Assembly (NCBI GenBank): GCA_964494155.1 | Contig: CAZBQX010000002.1 | Coordinates: 67,780-129,941, forward strand | DNA: 62,162 nucleotides | Direction of reading: 5' to 3' | DNA from: an uncultured Syntrophales bacterium | Lineage (GTDB): Bacteria > Desulfobacterota > Syntrophia > Syntrophales > JAAYKM01 | Shown: positions 18,871 to 56,927 of the stretch, one piece after another | How positions within the stretch are numbered: the first letter of the stretch is position 1 | Layout of the letters: each line of letters begins with the position of its first letter | Made by a program: the position numbers and the translations under genes | Notes under the pieces: generated by a model | Seen by the model: only the letters and a program-made list of their open reading frames with translations | What the model was told of the DNA's origin: nothing | Database searches by the model: none

Positions 18871-19327
18871 GAGACCCATGATATCCCATTCGACATATCG
18901 AAAGATATTGCTCCAAGGAACAACTTTACTTTTAATTCTCATCCTGTTAGCCTGTGCGGGAAAAGGGACGGTACCGACATCACCTCCGGCGGTCAAAGCA
19001 CACCGGGAACTACCCCCCACCCCGGTTGCTGACCGGCCATGATCTGAAGGCGATGGGATTCCGTCCGGGCCCCCTGTTTCAGGAAATTCTTGATGCCTTG
19101 GAAACGGCGCAACTGGAAGGAGAACTGACGACGGAAGAAGAAGCCCGCCGGATGGTACTTGACCGCTGGCATCCCCAGTGAGAGACCCATGATATCCCAT
19201 TCGACATATCGAAAGATATTGCTCCAAGGAACAACTTTACTTTTAATTCTCATCCTGTTAGCCTGTGCGGGAAAAGGGACGGTACCGACATCACCTCCGG
19301 CGGTCAAAGCACACCGGGAACTACCCC
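18706..19327 (+). repeat. Exact 311-bp tandem duplication (18706-19016 and 19017-19327)
   Basis: Both copies read base by base appear identical; the ORF track shows duplicated peptides [10 protein letters not shown]... and ...[11 protein letters not shown]. Confidence 0.95.
18878..19042 (+). pseudogene. Truncated duplicate of the NlpC/P60 lipoprotein N-terminus
   Basis: First repeat copy encodes the signal peptide and lipobox LLACAG, then runs out of frame into the cca copy and stops. Confidence 0.7.
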
Positions 19328-19968
19328 GCATGGGATATACCATCCAGGTGGGGGCTTTCGCCAAGGTGGAAAATGCGGCCCGGTTGGCCGATGGATTACG
19401 AAGCCGCGGCTTGAACGCCATTTACTATGTGAGCCACCGGGATCTCTATAAAGTCCGGTTCGGCAACTATCCGACCCGGGAAGCGGCCAGACTGAGGGCG
19501 GAGAGACTTCAGGCAACAGGCATGATCGATGAGTTTTACATCGTCAGTCCCGATGCCTACGCAGTTGCAAATCAAGACAAGTACGGTACATCGTTCTTAA
19601 GAGGCGAACTTGTTAAGACGGCGGAAACGTTTATCGGGGTTCCTTATCTCTGGGGCGGCAATTCCGTGGACACGGGTTTTGATTGCAGCGGCCTGACCAT
19701 GACGGTTTATCAGCTGAACGGTCTCGATTTACCCCGTCATTCGGGCGATCAATTTGAGATCGGATTGCCCGTCGAACGTGAAGAACTGCAACCGGGTGAC
19801 CTGATTTTCTTTCACACCCGGGGAAACGGTAAAATTTCTCACGTGGGCATCTTCGTGGGTGGAGATCAATTTATCCACGCCCCGGGAACAGGAAAGACCA
19901 TTCGCAGGGATTTCCTCTCCAGTGCATATTACCGCACGCGATATGTGGGAGGGAGAAGTTATCTCTAA
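19189..19968 (+). CDS. SPOR-domain NlpC/P60 peptidoglycan endopeptidase lipoprotein
   Basis: Lipobox LLAC; SPOR YTIQVGAF...LYKVRFG; NlpC/P60 PYLWGG, FDCSGL, HVGI, IHA. Confidence 0.92.
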   Translation: MISHSTYRKILLQGTTLLLILILLACAGKGTVPTSPPAVKAHRELPRMGYTIQVGAFAKVENAARLADGLRSRGLNAIYYVSHRDLYKVRFGNYPTREAARLRAERLQATGMIDEFYIVSPDAYAVANQDKYGTSFLRGELVKTAETFIGVPYLWGGNSVDTGFDCSGLTMTVYQLNGLDLPRHSGDQFEIGLPVEREELQPGDLIFFHTRGNGKISHVGIFVGGDQFIHAPGTGKTIRRDFLSSAYYRTRYVGGRSYL

Positions 19969-20058
19969 GGATATATATTATGATTGTTGCGTCTAGTAAT
20001 GTTCACAGGTTTAAATTTTTCTAATCCGCCAGAAAACTTGCATGTATGGTGAACCAGG

Positions 20059-21477
20059 ATGGCTGAAGTATTGATTGTGGACGATAACGAAACGACCGTT
20101 GAAGTGTTGAAGAAAATCGTCCAGAAAATGGGTCATAATGTGAGCACCGCACTGACCCTGAATAAGGGGCTTTATCTCTCCACGATCAAGGAATTTGACG
20201 TGGTGATGCTCGATGTGCGCCTTCCCGATGGGAACGGCATTGCCTCGCTGACTGAATTTCAGAATGTCCCGTCATCGCCGGAAGTCATCATCATGACCGG
20301 TTACGGCGACGCGGACGGCGCGGAACTGGCGATCCGGAGCGGCGCCTGGGATTATATTGAAAAACCGGCTTCATTGCCGATGATGACCCTGCCGATTATT
20401 CGCGCGCTTCAATATCGGGAAACAAAAAAACAGAAGAACAATCTCAAATCCCTGAAACGTGAAGGCATTGTCGGAAGAAGTCCTCAATTGGACGCCTGTC
20501 TGGATTTTGTGGCAAAAGCGTCCGTTTCCGATGCCAATGTCCTGCTCAAGGGGGAATCGGGGACGGGAAAAGAACTGATTGCCAAGGCGATTCATGAAAA
20601 CAGTGTCCGATCTCTCAAGAATTTTGTGATTGCCGACTGTTCATCGTTGCCGGTTACCATGCTGGAGAGTGTGCTGTTAGGTGACGTACGAGATGCCTAC
20701 AGCATCGATGACAAAGTCAGAACCGGTCTGTTTCAGCAGGCCGATCGGGGTACAATTTTGCTGAAAGACGTCGAAGAAATGTCCCTTACCCTCCAGAAAA
20801 CCTTCCTGCGGGTCTTGGAAGAGCGTCATGTCCGGCCTGTGGGAAGTCGCCAGGATATTAAAAGCGACTTCCGCCTGGTGGTGTCCACAAAACGGGATCT
20901 GGAAGAAATGACCAACACGGGACTCTTTCGCGGAGATCTTTATGAAAAACTGCAGTCCCTGACCTTGGAGATTCCTCCCCTGCGTGAACGTAGAGAGGAT
21001 ATCCTGGAAATCGCCCTCTTTCATTCTACAAAAATCTGCAAGCGTTTCGCTATGGGCGTCAAGGGTTTTGCTCCCGATTTCGTCGATGTCCTGATGGCCT
21101 ATAACTGGCCCGGCAACATGCGGGAATTGATCCATGCCTTGGAGATGGCCCATAACGTTGCCCTGGATAGTCCGACTCTCTTTGGCCAACATCTTCCCCT
21201 GTATGTTCGGGTGAATGTAAAACGGTCCATGATTAAAAACGTTGACCCCACCGACATGTCCCCTGCGGAAGAGGCGCAAACTTTTCCCAGTTATAAAGAA
21301 ATGCGAACGGAGACCATTGATAAGGCGGAGCGACAGTATGTCATCAATCTCCTGTCTTTTTCCGGAAACAGTATTAAAAAGGCCTGTGAGATTTCCGGCA
21401 TGTCGCGGCCACGGCTCTATGAATTGATGAAAAAGCATCATATCGACCGGCACAATGTAACCGATGAAATGCCATAA
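20059..21477 (+). CDS. NtrC-family REC-AAA+-HTH regulator with degenerate sigma54-activation motifs
   Basis: REC DVVMLD and KP, Walker A GESGTGKE, WPGNMREL and HTH are present; GAFTGA is replaced by DAYSID and Walker B reads LLKD. Confidence 0.9.
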   Translation: MAEVLIVDDNETTVEVLKKIVQKMGHNVSTALTLNKGLYLSTIKEFDVVMLDVRLPDGNGIASLTEFQNVPSSPEVIIMTGYGDADGAELAIRSGAWDYIEKPASLPMMTLPIIRALQYRETKKQKNNLKSLKREGIVGRSPQLDACLDFVAKASVSDANVLLKGESGTGKELIAKAIHENSVRSLKNFVIADCSSLPVTMLESVLLGDVRDAYSIDDKVRTGLFQQADRGTILLKDVEEMSLTLQKTFLRVLEERHVRPVGSRQDIKSDFRLVVSTKRDLEEMTNTGLFRGDLYEKLQSLTLEIPPLRERREDILEIALFHSTKICKRFAMGVKGFAPDFVDVLMAYNWPGNMRELIHALEMAHNVALDSPTLFGQHLPLYVRVNVKRSMIKNVDPTDMSPAEEAQTFPSYKEMRTETIDKAERQYVINLLSFSGNSIKKACEISGMSRPRLYELMKKHHIDRHNVTDEMP

Positions 21478-21505
21478 TCATAATAAGGAATAAGAGCGGA
21501 CGGCG

Positions 21506-21874
21506 ATGAAGGTCATTCTGTACATAGCTAAAGATCACCGGGAAGGGCAAAAACTGCAGTCCGCTGTCGAGAAGATAATACCGAAGCACTTGCTGGTCGT
21601 CTTCAATATGATTACGGCCCTGTCCCAAGGGCTCAGGGGCCCCCTGTCCGATACGGTGCTGGTGCTTTGCCCTTCCTGCAAAGAAGACGTCCGGGAACTC
21701 GTGGCCTTACGGGAATTGATCCAGGGTGTACGGACGATTATGGTGCTTCCCGACGACGAGCGGGAGACGGTGGCGATCGGACACCGTTTCCAGCCCCGTT
21801 TTCTGACCATGTCCACCCCGGATTTCAAGGATGTTTCCAAAGTGCTGGGGAAAATGCTCCATCTGCGGGATTGA
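21506..21874 (+). CDS. Hypothetical protein, predicted pseudo-receiver fold (copy 1)
   Basis: 122 aa; shares VLPDD-x-ET...H...PR-[FY]-L with 53738-54217. Confidence 0.7.
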   Translation: MKVILYIAKDHREGQKLQSAVEKIIPKHLLVVFNMITALSQGLRGPLSDTVLVLCPSCKEDVRELVALRELIQGVRTIMVLPDDERETVAIGHRFQPRFLTMSTPDFKDVSKVLGKMLHLRD

Positions 21875-22132
21875 TGGTGCGGTTTTCTCCGTAGAATTTC
21901 TTTTTATGGTTTGGTGCGATATCTTTTCCGGCCAGCGTTTTCCTGAATGTCGCATGAAAGCAGACCCTGAAAAGAATTGGCAAAATCAAGCGGTTAACCT
22001 GTCATCTGTCATCATTTTTTATTAAAGTCCTGATTCGATCATTCCGATATACCATTCAAGTGTGTAACCAGATTTACATAAGAATCGGTTCTGCCGAAAG
22101 TGCATCAAACTGGGGGAGAAAGGAGGGAAAAC

Positions 22133-22645
22133 GTGGATAGTGAAATCAGTGTGATAGATCAAACCGTTCGGGCGATTGCCGTCAAAGAGGGGAAATACTT
22201 GACTTTTACTCTCGCCGGAGAGGAGTACGGCATCGGGATTCTGAAAGTCAGGGAAATTGTCGGCATGATGAACATTACCCGAATTCCACAGACTCCATCG
22301 TATGTCAAGGGGGTCGTCAATCTGCGGGGAAAGGTCATCCCAGTTGTTGACCTGCGGTTAAAGTTCGGTATTGAGGCCATGGACTACACGGACCGGACCT
22401 GTATTATCGTCGTCGAGATTGTGGGGACGGGCAAAGACATACCCATGGGTGTTGTTGTTGATGCGGTTTCGGAAGTCATCAATATCCGCCAAAGTGATAT
22501 TGAGGAAACGCCCAACTTCGGAACACGTATCGATACGGATTACATTTTAGGCATGGCCAAAACCAACGGGGGTGTAAAAATCCTCCTTGATATTGATCGG
22601 GTCCTGTCGGCAGCGGAAGTCACAGCATTGGAGCAAGTCATGTAA
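22133..22645 (+). CDS. cheW: Chemotaxis adaptor CheW (copy 1)
   Basis: KYLTFTL..EEYGI.ILKVREI, GVVNLRGKVIPVVDLR, ILLDID; GTG start after GGAGG. Confidence 0.95.
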   Translation: MDSEISVIDQTVRAIAVKEGKYLTFTLAGEEYGIGILKVREIVGMMNITRIPQTPSYVKGVVNLRGKVIPVVDLRLKFGIEAMDYTDRTCIIVVEIVGTGKDIPMGVVVDAVSEVINIRQSDIEETPNFGTRIDTDYILGMAKTNGGVKILLDIDRVLSAAEVTALEQVM

Positions 22646-22720
22646 CCTGATCCACACAAGTCTTAAATCTTATCTTGCCGGGGGGATAAATCATGAAAAA
22701 TTGTGAGGTGAACATGAAGT

Positions 22721-22736
22721 CGGCAGGGCTTTTGCG
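22721..22736 (+). promoter_or_regulatory. Possible sigma54 -24/-12 promoter upstream of MCP copy 1
   Basis: CGGCAGGGCTTTTGCG has GG-N10-GC spacing and TTGC. Confidence 0.35.
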
Positions 22737-22847
22737 CCATATCGTCCTGTTGGTTTGTCCGGTCAGGAGGGAAGGGGTGGTTCCATTTCTTTCCGATAAT
22801 CATATCATATAATCTTCAATATCAAATCTTTCTGGGGGGAAAAAATC

Positions 22848-24473
22848 ATGAAAAATATGAAGTTGAGTGTGAAGCTGGTGGGAAGCTTTGTTGCTGTTGC
22901 ACTGCTGACCTGTCTGGTGGGACTGGTGGGAACCTTTTCCATTTATTCGATTGATAATGCGGATACCGAACTGTATGAGGTGAACACGCTTGCCTTAAAC
23001 CATGTGGGAAAACTTAAAGAAGATTTTCAGAAGATGCGCAGTGTTTTTCGGGACGGCATGATGACCAAGTTCCTTTTTAATCGGGATGCTGCGGAGCATT
23101 TTTCCCAGGTCAAGGAACTGGACGGCACCATGCAGAAAACGTTGTCCGAGCTTGAAAAAATTATGAAGACGGATGATTTGAAACAGGCGTTGGCCGGGGT
23201 CAATGCGGCACTCAATGAATATTATCCGGTCCGTAACAGGCTGTCCGGTCTCGTGGAGGAGGGCAAACAGGAAGAATCGTTCAGCCTGCTTCAGGGAGAT
23301 GTGGCGGTTTATGGAAAGAAGCTGGGCGAGGCCATTGTCCGGATAGATGAACTGGCGGTGGATCAGGCCAAGGCCAAGTCGGAAGGAAACACCCGGAAAG
23401 CAAATTGGGCGGTTCTCATGATGTGGTTTTTAACATTTGCGGGAACCTTGCTTGCCGTGGCCCTTGGCGCTCTGGCTTCGCGTTCTATTGTCCGGCCGAT
23501 TCAACGGGTTGTGGACGGGCTGTCGGAAGGCGCCGCCCAGGTGTCGGCTGCATCGACGCAGGTTGCGTCATCCAGCCAGAATCTGGCGGAAGGGACTTCG
23601 CAACAGGCAGCATCCCTCGAGGAGACGTCTTCCTCCCTGGAGGAGATTGCTTCCATGACACGTCAGAATGCCGAGAATACAGCCCAGTGTGATCAGGTGC
23701 TAAAAAACGAAGCAGCGCCCAATTTCCAGATTATCAGTGACCGCATCGAGAAAATGAAGGTGGCCATTGAGGAAACGGTCCGGGCAAGCGATGAAACCTC
23801 CAAGATCATCAAGACCATTGACGAAATTGCCTTCCAGACGAATCTTTTGGCGCTCAATGCCGCGGTGGAAGCAGCCCGGGCAGGCGAAGCCGGGGCCGGA
23901 TTTGCTGTCGTGGCGGATGAAGTGAGAAACCTGGCTATGCGGGCTGCCGAAGCGGCGAAAAACACCTCCGAACTCATCGAAGGGTCCAACAGACGGATCA
24001 AGGATGCTTCGACTTTGTCGGAACAGGTCATCGAAGCCATCGGCGAGAATGCGAGGATCGCCCAAAAAGTAACCCAGTTGACCGAGGAAATTGCCGCCGC
24101 AAGCCAGGAACAGTCCCATGGCTTAAATCAGGTGAATATTGCCGTCTCCGAAATGGATAAGGTAACCCAGCAGGCGGCGGCCAATGCGGAGGAATCGGCC
24201 AGCGCGGCGGAGGAAATGAACGCCCAGGCATCACAGATGCTGACCTACGTTCACGAACTTTTATCGATTGTCGGAGGTCATCAGGCCGATACCGTACAGC
24301 ACAATACATATTCAACCGAACGGGCGATGCCGTTGCATCCGCTGTGCCATCGCTCTCGCACCTCCCGTTCCGTAACCAAACGGCCGGCACGTATCGCCGC
24401 GGTGGAAAAGAAGCAGGTGGTCAGACCTGAAGAAATTCTGCCTCTCGAAGAGACGGAATTCAGGGATTTCTAA
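22848..24473 (+). CDS. Methyl-accepting chemotaxis protein (copy 1)
   Basis: Two TM segments flanking a helical periplasmic domain; tip IDEIAFQTNLLALNAAVEAARAGEAGAGFAVVADEVR; C-terminal EFRDF. Confidence 0.96.
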   Translation: MKNMKLSVKLVGSFVAVALLTCLVGLVGTFSIYSIDNADTELYEVNTLALNHVGKLKEDFQKMRSVFRDGMMTKFLFNRDAAEHFSQVKELDGTMQKTLSELEKIMKTDDLKQALAGVNAALNEYYPVRNRLSGLVEEGKQEESFSLLQGDVAVYGKKLGEAIVRIDELAVDQAKAKSEGNTRKANWAVLMMWFLTFAGTLLAVALGALASRSIVRPIQRVVDGLSEGAAQVSAASTQVASSSQNLAEGTSQQAASLEETSSSLEEIASMTRQNAENTAQCDQVLKNEAAPNFQIISDRIEKMKVAIEETVRASDETSKIIKTIDEIAFQTNLLALNAAVEAARAGEAGAGFAVVADEVRNLAMRAAEAAKNTSELIEGSNRRIKDASTLSEQVIEAIGENARIAQKVTQLTEEIAAASQEQSHGLNQVNIAVSEMDKVTQQAAANAEESASAAEEMNAQASQMLTYVHELLSIVGGHQADTVQHNTYSTERAMPLHPLCHRSRTSRSVTKRPARIAAVEKKQVVRPEEILPLEETEFRDF

Positions 24474-47985: not shown

Positions 47986-48129
47986 ACAGGATTTCAAATA
48001 AGCTGTCAACATATTTTTCACATCGGACGATTTTTTTACCGGGAGAAATCTCTTTGCTGGGCAGCTTTTCTCTGATCCCTCTTTGGCAAACGATTCAGGG
48101 AAAAGATAGAATCAGAATGTTTATCTGTC

Positions 48130-48145
48130 TGGTACATATGTTGCT
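48130..48145 (+). promoter_or_regulatory. Candidate sigma54 promoter upstream of the hybrid kinase
   Basis: TGGTACATATGTTGCT, one mismatch to TGGCAC-N5-TTGCW. Confidence 0.45.
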
Positions 48146-48361: not shown

Positions 48362-51300
48362 ATGTTGGACGAAAAAAAGACAAAGAAACAGCTTATTGAT
48401 GATATTAAATCATTAAGAGAACACCTCGCCACTTTTCAGCACCGTCAACTTGACGATCAAAAATCTGACATATCCATCGAAAAAACACTTGCCTGGAAGG
48501 ATTTTCTCCTGGGGCTTCACGAAAAATCCTGTGATTTTAACGACGAAGATCTTTATCGGTATATTCTGGATGAAGTCGTCCGCCTTACCCAAAGCGACAT
48601 CGGTTTTCTACACCTGGTGTCGGAAGATCAGCAGTCCGTGATTCTGACCTGTTGGCATGAGAAGGCGCTTCAGCACTGTACGGCGTCTCATGAAACCCAT
48701 TATCCCGTTGACCAAGCCGGCAACTGGGCGGATTGCCTTTACTTGAAACGTCCGGTTGTTTACAACGACTTTTCCCAAGCACCGAACCGGAAGGGTCTGC
48801 CTCCGGGGCATAATCCCATCCTGCGCTTTATGGGGATTCCCGTAATCGAGCAGGGCAAGGTGCGCATCATTCTGGGGGTCGGCAATAAATCGGAAGATTA
48901 TGACGATGAAGAGGTGTTTCAAACTCAGCTTGTCGCAAACAACCTGCAATCGATTTTAACGCGGCGACGTGTTGAAAAGCAGCTCCGGGAGAACGAGGAA
49001 AGATTGTTCCTGTCACTCCAGGCCACCCAGGATGCGATCTGGGACTGGAATATCGTTCAGGGAACCGGTTATGCCAGTCTAAATTATTTTACCATGTTGG
49101 GTTACAAGCCTGATGAATTTTTGATGAATTCTGAGTATTGGTGGCAACTTATACATTGTGACGACGTGCAAAAAGTCCGGGCGGCCATGGACCGGGTGAT
49201 GAACAATCCCGATTCCGGGCAGAACACTATACCCAGCGTCGAATTCCGGATGCGGAAAAAGACCGGTGAATGGCGTTGGATCTTGGCACGTGGAAAAGTT
49301 GTAACCTGGGATAGAGACGGTCGGCCGCTGCGCATGATGGGAACCCACACCGATATCACGGACCGCAAGCGGGCGGAGGAAGCCCTCAGGGACAGCGAAG
49401 AGCGTTACCGTAGTCTGTTCGAGACGGCAAATGACGCAATTCTGTTGATGGATCGGGATTTTATTTACGTTGACTGCAATTCAAAAGCTATGGAAATAAC
49501 TCGGCGCAGTCGTAACGAAATTATCGGGCACAATGCCTACGAGGATTCACCGCCCATACAGCCAGGCGGCAATGATTCCGAGACTGCAGCTCTTTTGTAT
49601 GTCAAAGAGGCTGTCTCCGGAAGGCCCCAGAAGTTTTACTGGCAGTCCCTGCGGAAAGACGGCACGCTTTTGGATCTTGATGTGTGTCTGAATAAGGTGA
49701 CCTTGGGGGAACAGGACTTCCTTCAGGTTATCGCGCGGGATATTACGGAACAAAAACAGGCGGAAAAGGCGTTACGTGAAAGTGAGGGTAAGTTCAAGGA
49801 CCTGGTGGAACAATCCATAGTCGGTGTCTATTTGATTCAGGATGGCCTTTTTCAGTATGTCAACGCAAAGTTTGCCGAAATATTCGGCTACGATATGGCT
49901 GAAATGACAGGTAAAATGGGACCAAAGGATGTCGTATTTGCCGATGATTTGCCCTTGGTCGAAAAGAATATCGACCAACGAATCTCCGGGGAACTCAAAG
50001 ATATCCATTATGCTTTCCGAATCGTCACAAAAACGGGTGAGATCAGATATATTGAGGTGTACAGTTCTCGGACAGCATATTGCGGGAGAACTGCCGTAAT
50101 CGGGACTTTGTTGGATTTAACTGAAAGACGGCAGATGGTAGAAGCTTTACGCCAAAACGAGGCCACACTCCGCAGCGTGTTCAATGCCAGCCCCATTGGT
50201 CTTTGCGCCATGAGAGGCCGTGTTTTCCAGAGCGCCAACAAGGCCTGGTATGACCTTTTCGGGTATACGGAAGCGGAGATTATCGGGCATACCACCCGGA
50301 TGTTATATGAAAATGATGGAGAATATGAGCGAGTCGGCCGTGAATTATCTGAAAACCTGAAAGACCGCGGATTGGCATCGGTTCAGACCCGGATCAAACG
50401 AAAAGACGGGGTCTTGCGTGATGTCATCGTGACTGCCGCGGCTCTGGAGAGGGAAAATCTTTTCCATGGAACCGTCGTGACCATTGAAGATATCACTGAC
50501 CGTATGCGAGCAGAGGATGAACTGAAGGAATCCCAGAGAAGGTTGTTCGATATTATCGAATTTCTCCCTGACGCCACGCTGGTGATTGACCAATACGGCA
50601 AGATCCTCGCCTGGAACCTGGCCATGGAGACCATGACGGGGGTCAAAAAGGAAGACATGCTCGGGAAGGGCAAGTATGAATACGCCCTGCCTTTCTATGG
50701 GACAAGACGCCCGATTTTGATTGATCTGGTCCTGCATCAGGATGAAGCGGTGGAAAACCAGTACGTAACGATCAGGAGATTCGGTGACGCCCTGTTCGCT
50801 GAAACACGGGCGCCCAATCTGCCGCCGGGTGATGTGATCCTTGCCGCAACGGCGTCGGTTTTGCGCGATTCCGATGGTGAGATTATTGCCGCCATCGAGT
50901 GTATTCGGGATGTAACCCATCAAACTCGGCTCGAATCAAAGTTGCGCCAGGCCCAGAAAATGGAGGCCATCGGGACCCTCGCCGGCGGCATTGCCCATGA
51001 TTTTAATAATATTCTCGCTTCCACGATCGGTTACACCGAACTGGCGATCATGAACATTGGCAAGCCGAACCTGCTGAACGGTTATCTGGAGCAGGTGATG
51101 AAAGCCTGTGACCGGGCGAAGAATCTGGTCAACCAGATTCTGGTTTTCAGCCGCCAGCGGGAACAGGAAAGAAAACCGGTCGATATGACGGTTATTGTCA
51201 AGGAAGCCCTCAAACTGTTGCGCGCATCCCTGCCTTCGACCATCAAGATTAACCATCATTTCCCTTCAGAACCGGCGACAGTCTTGGCAGACCCGACGCA

Positions 51301-52081
51301 GATCCACCAGATCGTCATGAATCTTTGCACCAACGCGGCCCAGGCCATGCCGGAAAACGGAGGTGAAATGGATGTAAGTCTTTCCAGCTTTTCCGTTTCC
51401 ACCACGATGGCGGAGTGCAATCCAGTCTTCAAGGCGGGTGCGTATGTGCAACTGGTGGTCAAAGACACGGGCCATGGCATCGACCCGGCCATCATCGATA
51501 AGATATTTGATCCTTTTTTTACGACGAAACGGCATCAGGAAGGAACCGGTCTTGGGCTTTCTGTGGTTTATGGTATCGTCAACAGTTATAATGGTGTTGT
51601 TCAGGTCACAAGCGAGCTTGGACAGGGGACAATATTCAATGTTTACATTCCTGCAATAGAAGAAATTAAAGTTACTTCGGAACAGAAGACGAAGGAACCG
51701 ATTCACGGCGGCACGGAATCGCTCCTGTTGGTTGATGATGAGGAACTTTTAGTCCAGGCCATGGAGAAGTATCTGGGAGCCCTGGGCTACGATGTGGTAT
51801 CTTCCACCAACAGTCCCGAGGCCCTGTATATGGTTCAGGAAAATCCATGTCGGTTTGACCTGATGGTTACCGATATGACGATGCCGCATATGACCGGGTT
51901 AAAATTAAGCCGGGAGGTGCTGGCAATCAATCCGCTGCTGCCGATCATTCTCTGTACGGGATACAACGAATCGATCACGGAAGACGAAGTGAAACGCAGC
52001 GGCATTAAGGAATTCGTTTTGAAGCCCGTATCGCTGCAGAAAATGGCTTATCTGATCAGGCAGGTTCTGGACATGCAATAG
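48362..52081 (+). CDS. Cytoplasmic hybrid sensor kinase: GAF, five PAS/PAC, HisKA, HATPase, REC
   Basis: GAF ending GVGNK; five PAS repeats ending D[IVL]T; AHDFNN, NLCTNA, DTGHG, FFTTK, GTGLGL; REC VTDMTMP; no TM segment. Confidence 0.95.
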
Positions 52082-52106: not shown

Positions 52107-53510
52107 ATGGCGCAAATTTTGATCATTGACGATGATGAAATGTTCTGTTCCCTGCTGTCCAGTGCTATTCAAAGCGAAGGCTATAATATTGAATGTGCCA
52201 ACACGTTGCAGAATGGCTTGGCCAGGGTAAGATCGGGTGCGTTCGATGTTGTCTTTCTTGACGTCAATCTTCCTGACGGCAACGGTTTGGAGCGGCTTGC
52301 GGATATCCGCGAAGCCCCATCGGCGCCGGAGGTGATTATTCTGACCGGTCTGGGTACCGCCGACGGGGCCGAGCTTGCCATTAAAAACGGCGTTTGGGAC
52401 TATATCCAAAAACCCTCCTCGATCCATGTCATGACCCTACCCCTGCTGCGAGCGCTGCAGTTTCGCGAGGAAAAATCGAAAGTCAAATCAACCGTCGGCC
52501 TGAAACTGGAAGGAATAATCGGCAACAGCGCGAAAATGAAAGCCTGTTATGAGCTGGTTTCACAGGCGGCCATGGCGGATGTGAATGTCCTGATAACGGG
52601 GGAGACCGGCACGGGCAAGGAACTCTTCGCCCGGGCCGTTCATGTGAACAGCGCCCGCACCGGCCGGAATTTTGTTGTGGTCGATTGTGCAGCCCTGCAG
52701 GATACGCTGAAAGAAAGCACGTTGTTTGGATATGAGAAAGGCGCCTTCACCGGAGCCGATCAAAGCCGCGAAGGGTTGATCAAGCAGGCGGACGGGGGAA
52801 CGCTGTTCCTCGACGAAATCGGGGAACTGCCGCTCCCCATGCAGAAAAGTTTTCTCCGTGTTTTGCAGGAACGCCATTTCCGCCCCCTGGGAAGTATAAA
52901 GGAGCTGAAAAGCAATTTCCGGCTCATTGCGGCTACAAATCGCGATTTGGAGAAATTATCCCAAACCGGCGGTTTCCGGGAGGATCTCCTGTTCCGTCTG
53001 CGCACCCTCACGATTGTCCTGCCGCCGCTCCGGGAGCATCCGGAAGATATCAGCGACATCGCGTCATATCACATCGCAAAAATCTGCAAGCGCAGCGGCA
53101 TTACGGAGAAAGCGCTGTCGTCCGATTTTCTGGAGGCGTTGATCTCCTATGATTGGCCTGGAAATGTTCGGGAGCTGGTCAATGCCCTGGAACGAGCCGT
53201 GGCCGCTTCCTTTACCAGTCCTACGCTTTTTCAACGCCATCTGCCGAGTTCCATCCGGGTAAAACTGGCCAAGGCCGCTATGGCCGCCGATCTGCCTGAC
53301 GAAGACCACTCCTCGGTATCATTTGACCAACATCCGCCCAGGTTGAAGGATTTACGCGAAATGACCTATGCCAAAGTGGAGAAAAACTATCTGCAACAAT
53401 TGCTAAAGGTTACCGCGGGGGATATGGAAGAGGCCTGCCGGATTGCCGATGTTGGGCGAACCCGACTCTATGATCTTTTAAGAAAACATCGCATACTTGT
53501 CCCACGTTAA
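52107..53510 (+). CDS. Sigma54-dependent response regulator (REC-AAA+-HTH), intact
   Basis: DVVFLD, GETGTGKE, GAFTGA, TLFLDEIGEL, FREDLLFRL, WPGNVREL, HTH. Confidence 0.96.
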   Translation: MAQILIIDDDEMFCSLLSSAIQSEGYNIECANTLQNGLARVRSGAFDVVFLDVNLPDGNGLERLADIREAPSAPEVIILTGLGTADGAELAIKNGVWDYIQKPSSIHVMTLPLLRALQFREEKSKVKSTVGLKLEGIIGNSAKMKACYELVSQAAMADVNVLITGETGTGKELFARAVHVNSARTGRNFVVVDCAALQDTLKESTLFGYEKGAFTGADQSREGLIKQADGGTLFLDEIGELPLPMQKSFLRVLQERHFRPLGSIKELKSNFRLIAATNRDLEKLSQTGGFREDLLFRLRTLTIVLPPLREHPEDISDIASYHIAKICKRSGITEKALSSDFLEALISYDWPGNVRELVNALERAVAASFTSPTLFQRHLPSSIRVKLAKAAMAADLPDEDHSSVSFDQHPPRLKDLREMTYAKVEKNYLQQLLKVTAGDMEEACRIADVGRTRLYDLLRKHRILVPR

Positions 53511-53538: not shown

Positions 53539-53595
53539 GTCCATAAAAAGTGTACGAAATCCGCTTTTCCTGAACCAAGTCCGGAAAAACTGCAC
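53539..53595 (+). promoter_or_regulatory. Paired upstream activator-like sites
   Basis: GTCCATAAAAAGTGTAC (53539-55) and GTCCGGAAAAACTGCAC (53579-95), 40 bp apart. Confidence 0.55.
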
Positions 53596-53659
53596 AAACC
53601 TCAGTTCCTCAATTAACATATCTATCTGAAATAAATACATTTTACCGAAAGAATCGTTC

Positions 53660-53675
53660 TGGCATGTTCATTGAT
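53660..53675 (+). promoter_or_regulatory. Candidate sigma54 promoter for pseudo-receiver/cheW/MCP copy 2
   Basis: TGGCATGTTCATTGAT: strong -24 element, -12 is TTGA rather than TTGC. Confidence 0.55.
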
Positions 53676-53737: not shown

Positions 53738-54217
53738 ATGATTTTTTATATGCCGGCCTATGATGAAAAGGGCGAGGAGCTTTTGAACCGCATGCTCGCA
53801 GAGCTTGCCCCAAGAAGGATTGAAATCTACCGATCTTTCCAGAATCTGCGTCAGCGGATTCAACGTCCTTTCCCGGATGTCAAGGTGGCCGTTCTGTTTT
53901 GCATGACTCAGGCTGATCTTCAGGAAATCTTTACCCTAAGTGAATGTCTACAGGATTTTAAAATCATTCTGGTGCTTCCTGATGATGACACGGAGACGAT
54001 CATCAAGGCTCATAACTTAAGACCCCGCTACCTGTCGTGGATGGATCATGATTTTTTCGACATGGTGGCGGTGCTGAAGCGGATGGTTGATTTCTATGAT
54101 GCCCACCAGACCGAAGAACAAAAAAAAGACATACGCACAAAAAAAACCGGGCACACCAAAAGGCCCTTAAAAGAATTAATGGTGATGAAAGGAGGACGAA
54201 TCGGGCAATGGAATTAG
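53738..54217 (+). CDS. Hypothetical protein, predicted pseudo-receiver fold (copy 2)
   Basis: Paralog of 21506-21874; start set at ATG 53738 after GGAGG. Confidence 0.72.
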   Translation: MIFYMPAYDEKGEELLNRMLAELAPRRIEIYRSFQNLRQRIQRPFPDVKVAVLFCMTQADLQEIFTLSECLQDFKIILVLPDDDTETIIKAHNLRPRYLSWMDHDFFDMVAVLKRMVDFYDAHQTEEQKKDIRTKKTGHTKRPLKELMVMKGGRIGQWN

Positions 54218-54732
54218 CAGAAAACAGGTTAACGGATTACCACAATCAGCCGTCGGCCAACCGGGAAGGTAAGTACCTTACATTCAGCCTGGCCGGAGAG
54301 GAATACGGCATCGGGATCAGGAAGGTGAGGGAGATTATCGGCATGATGGCCGTTACACACATTCCCCAGACGCCTCCCTATATCAAAGGCGTCATCAATC
54401 TCCGGGGAAAGGTCATTCCTATCGTGGATCTGCGGTTAAAATTCGACATGGAATCCATGGCCTACACGGATCGGACCTGTATCATCGTGGTGGAGATCAA
54501 AAGCGCCGAGAAAACCATTGCGATGGGGATTATCGTCGACTCCGTTTCGGAAGTGATCAACATCAAAGGCGGCGACATCGACGATACACCCGGCTTCGGC
54601 AGCAAACTGGATACGGAATATATCCTCGGCATGGCCAAAACGGCCGGTAGCGTCAAGATCCTGCTCGATATCGACCGGGTCTTTGGTGAAGCGGAATTTG
54701 CGGTCGCGGGGAATATCCCTCCCTGCCAGTAG
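54208..54732 (+). CDS. cheW: Chemotaxis adaptor CheW (copy 2)
   Basis: KYLTFSL..EEYGIGI.KVREI, GVINLRGKVIPIVDLR, ILLDID. Confidence 0.95.
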   Translation: MELAENRLTDYHNQPSANREGKYLTFSLAGEEYGIGIRKVREIIGMMAVTHIPQTPPYIKGVINLRGKVIPIVDLRLKFDMESMAYTDRTCIIVVEIKSAEKTIAMGIIVDSVSEVINIKGGDIDDTPGFGSKLDTEYILGMAKTAGSVKILLDIDRVFGEAEFAVAGNIPPCQ

Positions 54733-54777
54733 TAATAATATGTTCATATTTCAAGATATTTATAACAGGAGAACAAC

Positions 54778-56400
54778 ATGAAGAACATGAAATTGGGCGT
54801 CAAACTTATTGGCGGGTTTATGATCGTGGCGTTGATTACGTTGGTTGTCGGGGTCATTGGCATGACCCAGATCAATAGCATTCAAAAGGCCGATGCTAAG
54901 TTGTATGAAGAAAATGTAAAAAGCCTGGCTGGCGTGGCGGAATTGAACGAGGCTTTTCTGGGCATGAGAATTCAGGTGGTTTATGCACTGGTCAACAAGT
55001 TTGCAAAAGAAAATGATATCTCAGACGCGGTCAGTGACATAAAACAGAGAAGTCAGAATATCACCGCTTTGGCAGAGAAGTTGAATGGGACCATAGCAGA
55101 CCCAAACGCCAAGAAGCAGTTCGATCAATTCAAGACGGAGTGGTCGCCTTATGTGTCAATTGTGGAATCTGTTTTACAGTCTGCGGTGGCCGGTAATAAG
55201 GACGAAACATTTAATACATTGGCCGGAGGAACGGAATCGGGGAAAAAACTCTCTGCTGCGATGAAGAATTTAATTGATCTCAATGTCGATCTGGCCAAGC
55301 AGACGGCGGAACATAATGCGGCCATCGCCAGTCGGGCGAACTGGATTTCCATCATCATTACCGTTTTGGGTATTGCGCTGGCTATGGGAATCGGCAGTCT
55401 CCTGACGCTGGCCATCACACGGCCCATCAATCGCGTGGTTGTCGGATTGACCGACGGCGCCGATCAGGTGGCTGCGGCCTCCAACCAGGTGTCATCGTCG
55501 AGTCAGCAACTGGCGGAAGGAACATCGGAACAGGCCGCCTCCCTGGAGGAAACATCTTCTTCCCTGGAAGAGATGTCGTCCATGACAAAACAGAATGCTG
55601 AGAACGCCCAGATTGCCAACGACATGATGACCAAGGAAGCGGCGCCCAACTTCCAGTTGATGGCGGAACGTATGGGTATCATGGAAAAGGCGATGCAGGC
55701 GTCGGTCTCGGCCAGTGGTGAAACGGCAAAAGTCATCAAAACCATTGATGAAATCGCCTTCCAGACCAACCTGCTGGCTCTCAATGCTGCCGTGGAAGCT
55801 GCACGGGCGGGTGAGGCCGGTGCAGGGTTCGCCGTGGTAGCCGATGAGGTGCGGAATCTGGCCATGAGAGCCACCGAAGCGGCCAAGAATACCCAGGATC
55901 TGATTTCGAATTCAACGGATCGGATCAAGGAAGCAACGGGTATTTACGGACAGGTATCGGAAGTGATGGATAAGAACGGACAGATTGCCAAGAAGGTCAC
56001 GGAATTGATCGGCGAAATCGCAGCGGCGTCTCAAGAACAGGCGCACGGCATTGCTCAGATCAACATCGCCGTCTCCGAAATGGATAAGGTCACCCAGCAG
56101 GCGGCGGCGAATGCCGAGGAATCTGCGAGTGCCTCGGAAGAGCTTAATGCCCAGGCCGAACAGATGAAATCGTTTGTCGCCGAACTGGCCCAGGTCGTCG
56201 GCGGCAGCCAGGATGGTTCTTCCGTCGTAGCCAGGAGGAGCGGTCGATCCGGTAAGCGGTCTGTAAAGGCGGTTAATCTTCCTGCACATACGGGAAAAGG
56301 CAAAGCGCTTGCCTTGGCCACAGGCCGGAGCGGTCAAGGGCGGGTGATCGATCCCAATCAGATCATTCCCATGGACGAGGAAGCGTTCAAGGATTTTTAG
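54778..56400 (+). CDS. Methyl-accepting chemotaxis protein (copy 2)
   Basis: Same architecture and tip sequence as copy 1; C-terminal AFKDF. Confidence 0.96.
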   Translation: MKNMKLGVKLIGGFMIVALITLVVGVIGMTQINSIQKADAKLYEENVKSLAGVAELNEAFLGMRIQVVYALVNKFAKENDISDAVSDIKQRSQNITALAEKLNGTIADPNAKKQFDQFKTEWSPYVSIVESVLQSAVAGNKDETFNTLAGGTESGKKLSAAMKNLIDLNVDLAKQTAEHNAAIASRANWISIIITVLGIALAMGIGSLLTLAITRPINRVVVGLTDGADQVAAASNQVSSSSQQLAEGTSEQAASLEETSSSLEEMSSMTKQNAENAQIANDMMTKEAAPNFQLMAERMGIMEKAMQASVSASGETAKVIKTIDEIAFQTNLLALNAAVEAARAGEAGAGFAVVADEVRNLAMRATEAAKNTQDLISNSTDRIKEATGIYGQVSEVMDKNGQIAKKVTELIGEIAAASQEQAHGIAQINIAVSEMDKVTQQAAANAEESASASEELNAQAEQMKSFVAELAQVVGGSQDGSSVVARRSGRSGKRSVKAVNLPAHTGKGKALALATGRSGQGRVIDPNQIIPMDEEAFKDF

Positions 56401-56558
56401 TCCGGCTGTTGAAGTGAATAAAAACAGATAAAAATCTTGATGAAATATTGAAGTTTTATGTGATAGGTATGCCAAACGGAACGGGTTTTTCGATTGATTT
56501 CGAGAATCCGTTCCGTTTCGTGCGGCGAGTGCGCACAGATTCGATCAAGGGATCCCTC

Positions 56559-56927
56559 ATGAGAGAAAAACGACAATTCGAAAGGTTCGACATCCAGGTG
56601 CCCGCTGTTGTTAAAATCCCCGGCGATAACGGCAACACTGTAAAATTGGATCTGAAAACGCACAATCTGTCGGCGGGAGGAACTTTCGTAAAACTGGGAG
56701 AATCACTTTCCTTAGGTTGTGAAGTGAAAATAGATATCATGTTGTCTTTCGAAGAGCTGAAAACGCCAATCGATCCCCTCGGTTCTCTAATCCTGTCCAC
56801 GACAGGGCGCGTGGTGAGGTCTGATCCGAATGGTGTTGCCATCTGCTTCAATGAAAATTATGAATTTAAAACCCGCCTGGATTTTCTGCATCAGAATCTG
56901 GATGGCGTGACACCCATCGCTGACTGA
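56559..56927 (+). CDS. Single-domain PilZ protein
   Basis: RQFER (RxxxR) and NLSAGG (N/DxSxxG); start set at ATG 56559. Confidence 0.85.
   Translation: MREKRQFERFDIQVPAVVKIPGDNGNTVKLDLKTHNLSAGGTFVKLGESLSLGCEVKIDIMLSFEELKTPIDPLGSLILSTTGRVVRSDPNGVAICFNENYEFKTRLDFLHQNLDGVTPIAD

Follow-up and report, generated by a model that had tools for sequence, protein, structure and literature searches.

The 62,162-nucleotide stretch of DNA analysed here (the window) comes from an uncultured Syntrophales bacterium and encodes, at positions 20059-21477, a homolog of the NtrC-family enhancer-binding proteins (EBPs) in which the AAA+ motor is degenerate. We think it rather probable that the product is a phosphorylation-controlled, DNA-binding regulator that would work independently of sigma-54, and that it belongs with the atypical bacterial EBPs (bEBPs). 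A first-pass annotation of the window had argued that the gene is functional and yet does not encode a conventional sigma-54 activator. This core idea holds up, as the motif losses are shared by orthologs, the ratio of nonsynonymous to synonymous substitution rates (dN/dS, omega) is about 0.05 and the gene is transcribed. The genes, domains and protein motifs given below, the hairpin at 21878-21893 and the sites at 22023-22049, 53565-53588 and 53659-53675 lie on the plus strand unless stated otherwise.

Motif changes and selection in the degenerate clade

The open reading frame (ORF) 20059-21477 is full-length, has no internal stops and encodes 472 amino acids (aa) with receiver (REC), AAA+, lid and Fis-type helix-turn-helix (HTH) domains, as judged from Pfam and from alignment to an intact paralog encoded at 52107-53510. 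Pfam places Response_reg at residues 4-106 (1.2e-20), Sigma54_activat (PF00158) at residues 137-303 (3e-48, profile positions 1-167 of 168) and AAA_lid_14 at residues 309-386. The HTH_8 match at residues 421-459 scores slightly under the gathering cut-off, and the intact paralog scores likewise. BLASTP aligns the two proteins over 463 residues with 48% identity and a single gap. By alignment and Pfam the paralog is canonical in GAFTGA, the Asp-Glu of Walker B, sensor I and the arginine finger.

The receiver domain (20059-20418) has an intact phospho-acceptor pocket (D8, D9, D52, T80 and K102, all five invariant in the ortholog alignment) and with it the acidic pocket, phospho-acceptor Asp, Thr and Lys of a two-component receiver. 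The remodelled AAA+ alpha/beta subdomain (residues 137-303, 20467-20967) is homologous to the Sigma54_activat type, but it lacks GAFTGA and the residue set for ATP hydrolysis. Its Walker A motif GESGTGKE (residues 165-172, 20551-20574) is retained, with Thr at position 167 replaced by Ser, Ala or Gly across the clade. In the L1 loop (20692-20709) DAYSID stands in place of GAFTGA at unchanged length, so that the wider GYEKGAFTGA of the paralog reads GDVRDAYSID. The loop also varies among the orthologs (NAYSME, GACNLD, NALNVE, HDYSID, HTYSLE). In Walker B (20764-20769) the TLFLDEIGE of the paralog has become TILLKDVEE, with Lys-Asp (K236 D237) replacing Asp-Glu; within the clade the Lys is invariant and the second position is D, G or N. 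Sensor I has lost its Asn to Lys (N278K, 20890-20892, ATNRDL to STKRDL), a change that is invariant in the clade. The arginine finger, the second Arg of FRxDLxxRL, is replaced by Lys in eight of nine clade members (R297K, 20947-20949, DLLFRL to DLYEKL), while the first Arg of this motif (R291) is kept. Sensor II (WPGNMREL, residues 350-357, 21106-21129) is retained, and so is the Fis-type HTH (21319-21435), which is conserved in the clade and, at 38% identity, is the folded domain most diverged from its counterpart in the paralog. The erosion of GAFTGA, Walker B and the arginine finger had been called in the first-pass annotation and is confirmed by the paralog alignment. Its list of retained elements (Walker A, the phospho-acceptor Asp, WPGNxREL, the HTH and a full-length frame) is likewise correct, and the sensor I substitution is an addition to it. 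The strain in metatranscriptome X2 carries a 6-nt deletion (two codons) at 21473, at the extreme C-terminus of the protein, and thus the tail beyond the HTH appears to be dispensable.

A protein search of 5.8 billion sequences returned eight relatives with 82-98% identity, all carrying the identical set of altered motifs; the next ones fall abruptly to about 53%. The species-representative genomes that hold this clade are all metagenome-assembled genomes of uncultured Syntrophales, from digesters and sludge. In a family alignment of 235 members, composed of the nine of the degenerate clade (the window copy counted) and 226 others, the four motifs are altered in every clade member. The 226 others all have G[AS][FY]TGA, the Walker B D-E (one D-D is the sole deviation), the sensor I Asn and the arginine finger.

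The eight complete copies all comprise 472 codons, align without gaps and keep a full-length frame. Pairwise dN/dS among the clade orthologs, calculated by the method of Nei and Gojobori, is 0.03-0.07 in every pair, with dS from 1.2 to saturation except in two near-identical pairs (dS 0.06 and 0.21). The first-pass annotation would have given way to recent decay if orthologs had intact motifs; they share the degenerate ones instead, with dN/dS of about 0.05, and decay is excluded. Constraint is uneven along the protein. It is strongest in REC (0.02-0.04), followed by the AAA+ core (0.06-0.09), the lid (0.03-0.09) and the HTH (0.03-0.09), and weaker in the L1 region (0.11-0.37) and the linker that precedes the HTH (0.12-0.95). 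A gene-by-gene comparison was made for one genome pair, the window and a 704-kb contig (L001/L167). Here omega is 0.050 for the degenerate copy (dN 0.065) and 0.086 for the intact paralog (dN 0.103), and thus the degenerate copy is under tighter constraint than its canonical relative. The corresponding values are 0.156 for cca (dN 0.148), 0.125 for the histidine kinase gene upstream of the intact paralog (dN 0.200) and 0.037 for thiC (dN 0.041).

Maximum-likelihood analysis of 68 family members recovers the degenerate clade as monophyletic (SH-aLRT 100) and places it outside the clade of the intact paralog, with an attachment point that the tree does not fix. Its stem measures about 1.0-1.2 substitutions per site, against crown paths of at most 0.25 and at most 0.6 for all other branches. 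We then defined family-conserved positions as those at least 90% conserved among the 226 canonical relatives (n = 169). The degenerate clade keeps 130 of these; 19 are fixed or nearly fixed (at least 8/9 members) to another residue, including D236K, N278K, R297K and K211R, and 20 are variable, including L1 positions 212-217 and E237. Losses cluster in the AAA+ core, where 51 of 81 conserved positions are kept, compared with 44/49 in REC, 25/27 in the lid and 9/10 in the HTH (Fisher p = 4e-5). This distribution has the signature of a burst of remodelling in the motor followed by stasis, and a uniform relaxation does not match it. At one contig end (L170 3730-3846, GCA_016929155.1) the last ~40 codons of the partial ortholog P0008 diverge wholly, in the same frame, from those of all other clade members. 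The divergence sits right at the contig end and is probably a chimeric assembly end.

Genomic setting, transcription and the canonical sister cassette

Upstream of the degenerate gene lie cca and a gene for an NlpC/P60-SPOR hydrolase; downstream follow a 122-aa ORF, cheW, mcp and an opposite-strand DUF484 gene. The order is the same in eight syntenic loci, which run thiN-thiD-thiC, cca, NlpC/P60-SPOR hydrolase, degenerate EBP and 122-aa ORF, and then reach the opposite-strand DUF484 gene and the ftsZ/ftsA end of the dcw cluster. None of the ortholog loci encodes a histidine kinase up to 10 kb upstream or downstream, which makes the regulator an orphan and agrees with the earlier remark that no kinase is adjacent, confirmed here by the neighbouring genes. 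The 122-aa ORF follows the EBP in every ortholog locus with a gap of 18-29 bp. The cheW and mcp genes (22100-24473) are optional: four loci have both, two have only cheW and two lack both. Thus, the invariant module consists of the EBP and the small ORF. In the window the segment 18706-19327, which spans the 3' end of cca and the 5' end of the NlpC/P60-SPOR gene, is an exact 311-bp tandem duplication. None of the orthologous loci has it, and there only ~10 bp separate the two genes. The depth of the repeat unit in DNA run X1 is 147 compared with 113 in the flanks, and that of a contig spanning the copy1/copy2 junction (18987-19046) is 47. From these depths the duplication looks real and present in only part of the population.

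The small ORF (21506-21874) encodes a pseudo-receiver with a (beta/alpha)5 CheY-like fold and Cys at the position of the phospho-accepting Asp. The AlphaFold2 (AF2) model of the (beta/alpha)5 domain has a pLDDT of 91, and the best PDB matches in Foldseek are CpaE/TadZ pseudo-receivers and true receivers (TM 0.64-0.69, E about 1e-3); Pfam and NCBIfam gave no match to the 122-aa protein. It is a paralog of the product of 53738-54217 (E 6e-18). The family has 73 members in the 5.8-billion-protein database, all annotated as 'hypothetical'. Its members, among them 21506-21874 and 53738-54217, are confined to Syntrophales/Thermodesulfobacteriota and find their closest folds in the N-domains of CpaE/TadZ. 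Besides the Cys at the phospho-Asp position they have a conserved VLPDD-x-ET...H..PR motif, and they always lie beside EBPs of the family treated here. The pseudo-receiver is a probable protein partner of the degenerate EBP.

The degenerate gene is clearly transcribed, at least as strongly as its canonical paralog. We took contig depth as a crude measure of expression. In metatranscriptome X2 a single RNA contig (19298-21941, depth 34) takes in the NlpC/P60 gene, the EBP gene and the small ORF and ends 67 nt past the last of these, near a weak terminator-like hairpin with a T-rich tail (21878-21893). RNA depth over cheW and mcp is 0-9 in X2, and DNA depth in run X1 stays level at 113-117. The pattern in X18 is like that in X2. 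In X26 and X27, from another study, contigs of low depth cover the EBP gene and the small ORF, and one of them, in X26, reads past the hairpin to 22107. The degenerate EBP and the pseudo-receiver are thus co-transcribed in four metatranscriptomes (X2, X18, X26 and X27). The cca gene, whose RNA contig is separate from the 19298-21941 contig, probably belongs to the same housekeeping-like transcript. For comparison, the intact paralog has a depth of 12 in X2, its kinase of 4-7, and the operon that follows them and appears to be sigma-54-driven is near zero; this operon is at most 20% covered in any RNA run.

The intact paralog is part of a second cassette (cassette 2), which has a conserved order of kinase, intact EBP, ~200-bp spacer, pseudo-receiver, cheW, mcp and PilZ gene. 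In the window the last four (pseudo-receiver 2, cheW2, mcp2 and the PilZ protein) occupy 53738-56927. Cassette 2 and the cassette of the degenerate copy (cassette 1) are ~30 kb apart, and three genomes have the two together, represented by the window, by the 704-kb contig of L001/L167 and by GCA_016929155.1. All cassette-2 orthologs (L167, L168, L169) have the PilZ-domain protein (56448-56927) downstream of mcp2, which suggests a connection to c-di-GMP for this CheA-less cassette. A metagenome scan with the intact paralog by means of the pattern FGYEKGAF returned generic EBPs at 34-43% identity and no orthologs.

The kinase of cassette 2 is a hybrid GAF/PAS histidine kinase (48362-52081). In four genomes it keeps its place immediately upstream of the intact paralog, and the ortholog loci identify it as the partner of that protein and not of the degenerate copy. 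The receivers also differ at most positions of helix alpha-1 (ETTVEVLKKIVQKMG in the degenerate protein vs EMFCSLLSSAIQSEG in the paralog). Kinase-regulator specificity residues are the basis on which we read these differences as differing kinase specificity. The suggestion made earlier that the 48362 kinase phosphorylates the degenerate protein is unsupported in view of both observations.

Sigma-54-type sites were accepted only if conserved in orthologs. A site of the form TTGGCAYG-N4-TTG[AG] precedes the pseudo-receiver-2/cheW2/mcp2 genes at 53659-53675, with its positions invariant in four orthologous intergenic regions, and this is the sole exact match to the pattern in the window. Its -12 element is non-canonical, with TTGA or TTGG for TTGC, in all four orthologs. 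Further upstream a conserved dyad, TTTTCCTGA-N6-TCCGGAAAA (53565-53588), lies inside a conserved A/T-tract block (about 53545-53597) and is a probable enhancer (upstream activating sequence) of the intact paralog. A second sigma-54-type site, CTGGTACATATGTTGC at 48129-48145 upstream of the hybrid kinase, occurs in the window and in L168 and hints that the kinase-EBP operon may itself be sigma-54 dependent. Since conserved sites of this type are found both at cassette 2 and upstream of the kinase, sigma-54 is presumably present in the host.

Cassette 1 is organised differently. Its small ORF is joined to the EBP operon, no -24/-12 element was found in its intergenic regions, and upstream of cheW there is a sigma-28 (FliA)-like promoter, TAAAGTCC-N12-TCCGATAT (22023-22049), conserved in position in L007, L001, L003 and L005. 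This is the only match to the pattern in the window; we call it sigma-28-like from what we take to be the FliA consensus, TAAAGTTT-N11-GCCGATAA. From the sigma-28-like site and the lack of a -24/-12 element it would follow that the link between EBP and cassette is cut or rewired in the degenerate copy.

Several candidate sites were set aside. A 16-mer, AAGAATCG(G)TTCTGGCA, is common to the cassette-2 promoter region of the window and the cassette-1 spacer of L007 and was considered as the relic of a sigma-54 promoter in cassette 1, but it is unconserved in the other orthologs of both loci and we do not rely on it. Two candidates for a common enhancer were too weak: an 11-mer, CTTTTCCTGAA, found in both spacers, and the pattern TTTTC-N11-15-GAAAA, whose scan gave five matches (1.4 expected), four of them inside genes. 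A scan of the window for TGGCAC-N5-TTGCW was no richer than shuffles.

Proposed function and rival explanations

We propose that a four-gene cassette (sigma-54 activator, pseudo-receiver, cheW, mcp) underwent duplication in an ancestor of a narrow Syntrophales clade, and that one copy then went through a burst of change, mostly in the AAA+ core, and has been held by strong purifying selection since. Its receiver would still be phosphorylatable and its Fis-type HTH would still bind DNA. ATP hydrolysis is predicted to have been lost through the changes of Walker B Asp-Glu to K[D/G/N], sensor I Asn to Lys and arginine finger Arg to Lys, and the engagement of sigma-54 through the scrambled GAFTGA. 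The dead AAA+ domain might then serve as a nucleotide-binding or oligomerisation scaffold only. The protein would be produced constitutively from the housekeeping-like transcript of NlpC/P60-SPOR hydrolase gene, EBP and pseudo-receiver, and a non-adjacent kinase would phosphorylate it and change its oligomeric state on DNA. In this state it may repress or activate sigma-70-type promoters elsewhere in the genome, like VpsR, NtrX, HupR and the NtrC of Rhodobacter capsulatus. The first-pass annotation had listed a sigma-54-independent regulator, a repressor and a dominant-negative protein side by side. We favour an autonomous sigma-54-independent regulator; nothing speaks specifically for the dominant-negative idea, given 48% identity to the paralog (38% in the HTH) and a long stem outside the paralog clade.

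Some observations weigh against this proposal. DNA binding, nucleotide binding and the lack of ATPase activity are all predictions from sequence, and none of the ortholog loci offers an adjacent cognate kinase. In the regions examined we found neither a target promoter nor an operator for the degenerate EBP, and the 90-bp region upstream of its gene is poorly conserved. A dyad in this region, AATTTTTCT-N8-AGAAAACTT (20014-20039), was rejected as a chance occurrence as it is absent from the 98%-identical ortholog L007. Furthermore, a remnant of A-Y-S persists in the L1 loop of six of the nine clade members. In PspF, single changes of F to Y or T to S are reportedly tolerated, and the two together leave some room for residual contact with sigma-54.

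It might be that the protein is instead a dedicated anti-activator, in which the dead subunit joins the intact paralog (or another of the numerous paralogs in the family) in mixed dimers or rings, or occupies the enhancer, and so brakes the sigma-54-dependent chemoreceptor cassette in a phosphorylation-dependent manner. We regard this as unlikely, although it has several points in its favour. Both copies co-occur ~30 kb apart in three genomes, and by established AAA+ logic the incorporation of a subunit that lacks Walker B, arginine finger and L1 would have a potent poisoning effect. Conservation is good in the REC-linker region, through which NtrC1-type proteins form their off-state dimers. 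Hetero-oligomeric EBP pairs also exist: HrpR/HrpS and FleQ/FleT are said to be such pairs, and RedR1/RedR2 is one (PMC10084136). In X2 and X18 the cassette-2 operon is nearly silent and, of the two regulator genes, the degenerate one has the higher expression; however, the absence of the kinase signal explains this silence equally well. The limited identity to the paralog (48%), with the HTH as its most diverged folded domain (38%), and the position of the degenerate protein on a long stem outside the paralog clade also speak against a partnership. A shared conserved operator between the two loci was not found, and the retention under strong selection of a receiver and an HTH of its own fits an autonomous regulator.

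In a more specific form, to which we give a rather small chance, the three conserved Lys residues at the Walker B Asp, the sensor I Asn and the arginine finger would lock the AAA+ pocket in a non-hydrolysing state, possibly independent of Mg, with a nucleotide or a new ligand bound. Together with the pseudo-receiver the protein would then act as a phosphorylation-gated anti-activator, via mixed oligomers with canonical paralogs or via enhancer occupancy. Were this true, it would be a natural dominant-negative layer on the sigma-54 control of CheA-less chemoreceptor cassettes.

A non-transcriptional role seems improbable. The protein would here be a phosphate sink, or a scaffold for the pseudo-receiver and the CheA-less CheW and chemoreceptor (MCP), with DNA binding secondary. 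It is true that the receiver is the most conserved part (omega 0.02-0.04), that the pseudo-receiver is an invariant neighbour and that chemosensory genes adjoin in some genomes. However, the HTH and the lid are likewise under strong purifying selection, and half of the orthologous loci are without the cheW-mcp pair.

We see very little chance that the protein still activates sigma-54 by means of non-canonical catalytic residues. It does retain Walker A, sensor II and the first Arg of the R-hand, and A-Y-S persists in L1 of 6/9 members. Yet four independent essential elements have changed together, namely the D and E of Walker B, the sensor I Asn, the arginine finger and both Gly of GAFTGA. Omega reaches 0.37 in the L1 loop, which drifts among clade members, and no -24/-12 promoter was found in the intergenic regions of cassette 1. 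Finally, the loss of catalytic motifs might suggest that the gene is decaying into a pseudogene or has lately lost its function in this one genome, but this can be dismissed by the motifs shared among orthologs, with substitutions that recur across genomes whose synonymous sites are saturated, by frames of full length in 8/8 complete copies, by an omega of ~0.05 that lies below that of the intact paralog in the same genome pair, and by transcription of the gene.

Comparison with known sigma-54-independent regulators

EBP homologs without GAFTGA that act independently of sigma-54 are an established class, which includes TyrR, PhhR, HupR, HsfA, NtrX and VpsR (PMC6158489). The NtrC proteins of R. 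capsulatus and Caulobacter are also atypical and sigma-54-independent (bioRxiv 10.1101/2023.06.06.543975). Members of this class, some of them with a non-consensus Walker B (DE to ND in VpsR), are activators or repressors at sigma-70 promoters (PMC6158489; bioRxiv 10.1101/2023.06.06.543975). The degenerate clade has the features of an atypical bEBP, with an AAA+ domain that lacks a functional GAFTGA, a DNA-binding domain that is kept and a gene under selection. It is not orthologous to the named regulators, as none of the NCBIfam equivalog models attains its cut-off, those for NtrX and TyrR scoring 243 bits (cut-off 600) and 182 bits (cut-off 576). In phmmer searches of the PDB the best relatives are the canonical NtrC1/NtrC4 of Aquifex (E 6e-67 over residues 3-364), followed by NtrX (3e-51) and VpsR (1.8e-32), and the protein nests among canonical Syntrophales EBPs. 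Because of these equivalog scores far below the cut-offs, the canonical best PDB relatives and the nesting among canonical Syntrophales EBPs, the clade is, on sequence grounds, an independent origin within the known class. Its proteins carry the database label 'sigma-54-dependent Fis family transcriptional regulator', which is almost certainly a misannotation.

The closest analogue is VpsR of Vibrio cholerae (PDB 7v2b), which likewise has a REC/AAA+/HTH layout, lacks GAFTGA and retains the phospho-acceptor Asp. In both, the Asp-Glu of Walker B is replaced, by ND in VpsR and by K[D/G/N] in the degenerate clade. VpsR activates sigma-70 RNA polymerase without ATP hydrolysis (PMC6158489). The two are distant relatives (phmmer E 1.8e-32 over the AAA+ domain), and VpsR needs c-di-GMP whereas the degenerate clade has no known ligand. 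Unlike VpsR, the clade has also replaced sensor I and the arginine finger, all three sites now being Lys, and has an intact sister cassette in the same genome.

NtrX is encoded next to a kinase, NtrY, and no kinase gene adjoins that of the degenerate EBP. NtrX of Brucella and Alphaproteobacteria (PDB 5m7n) is, like the degenerate protein, an NtrC-family response regulator without GAFTGA, and it is a repressor (PMC6158489). Its L1 loop is shortened (bioRxiv 10.1101/2023.06.06.543975), whereas that of the degenerate clade is scrambled at unchanged length. The NtrC of R. capsulatus and Caulobacter, HupR, TyrR/PhhR and HsfA are alike in that GAFTGA is defective or deleted and sigma-70 promoters are regulated. 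Some of them need ATP binding but not hydrolysis (bioRxiv 10.1101/2023.06.06.543975; PMC6158489). Unlike the degenerate clade, most of this group keep the Walker B Asp-Glu, and they belong to other lineages and have other sensor domains. The Aquifex NtrC1/NtrC4 proteins (PDB 1ny5, 4l4u, 3dzd) share the REC-linker-AAA+ layout; however, GAFTGA, Walker B, sensor I and arginine finger are all intact in them, and they are true sigma-54 activators. PexR was considered as a precedent and rejected, being a canonical GAFTGA-containing EBP (PMC12754779).

Particular to the degenerate clade are thus an L1 loop that is scrambled and not deleted, the replacement of three catalytic residues by conserved Lys, the obligate pairing with a pseudo-receiver and a canonical sister cassette in the same genome. 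Atypical bEBPs are regarded as signs of evolutionary transitions between sigma-54 and sigma-70 control, and those that have been characterised are old lineages without a close canonical sister. Here, a copy predicted to be ATPase-dead and a canonical copy of one four-gene cassette lie ~30 kb apart with diverged promoters (sigma-28-like vs -24/-12 and dyad) and form a compact natural pair. Such a pair lets one ask how an AAA+ motor might turn into a passive scaffold, which residues must change on the way and what becomes of the regulon.

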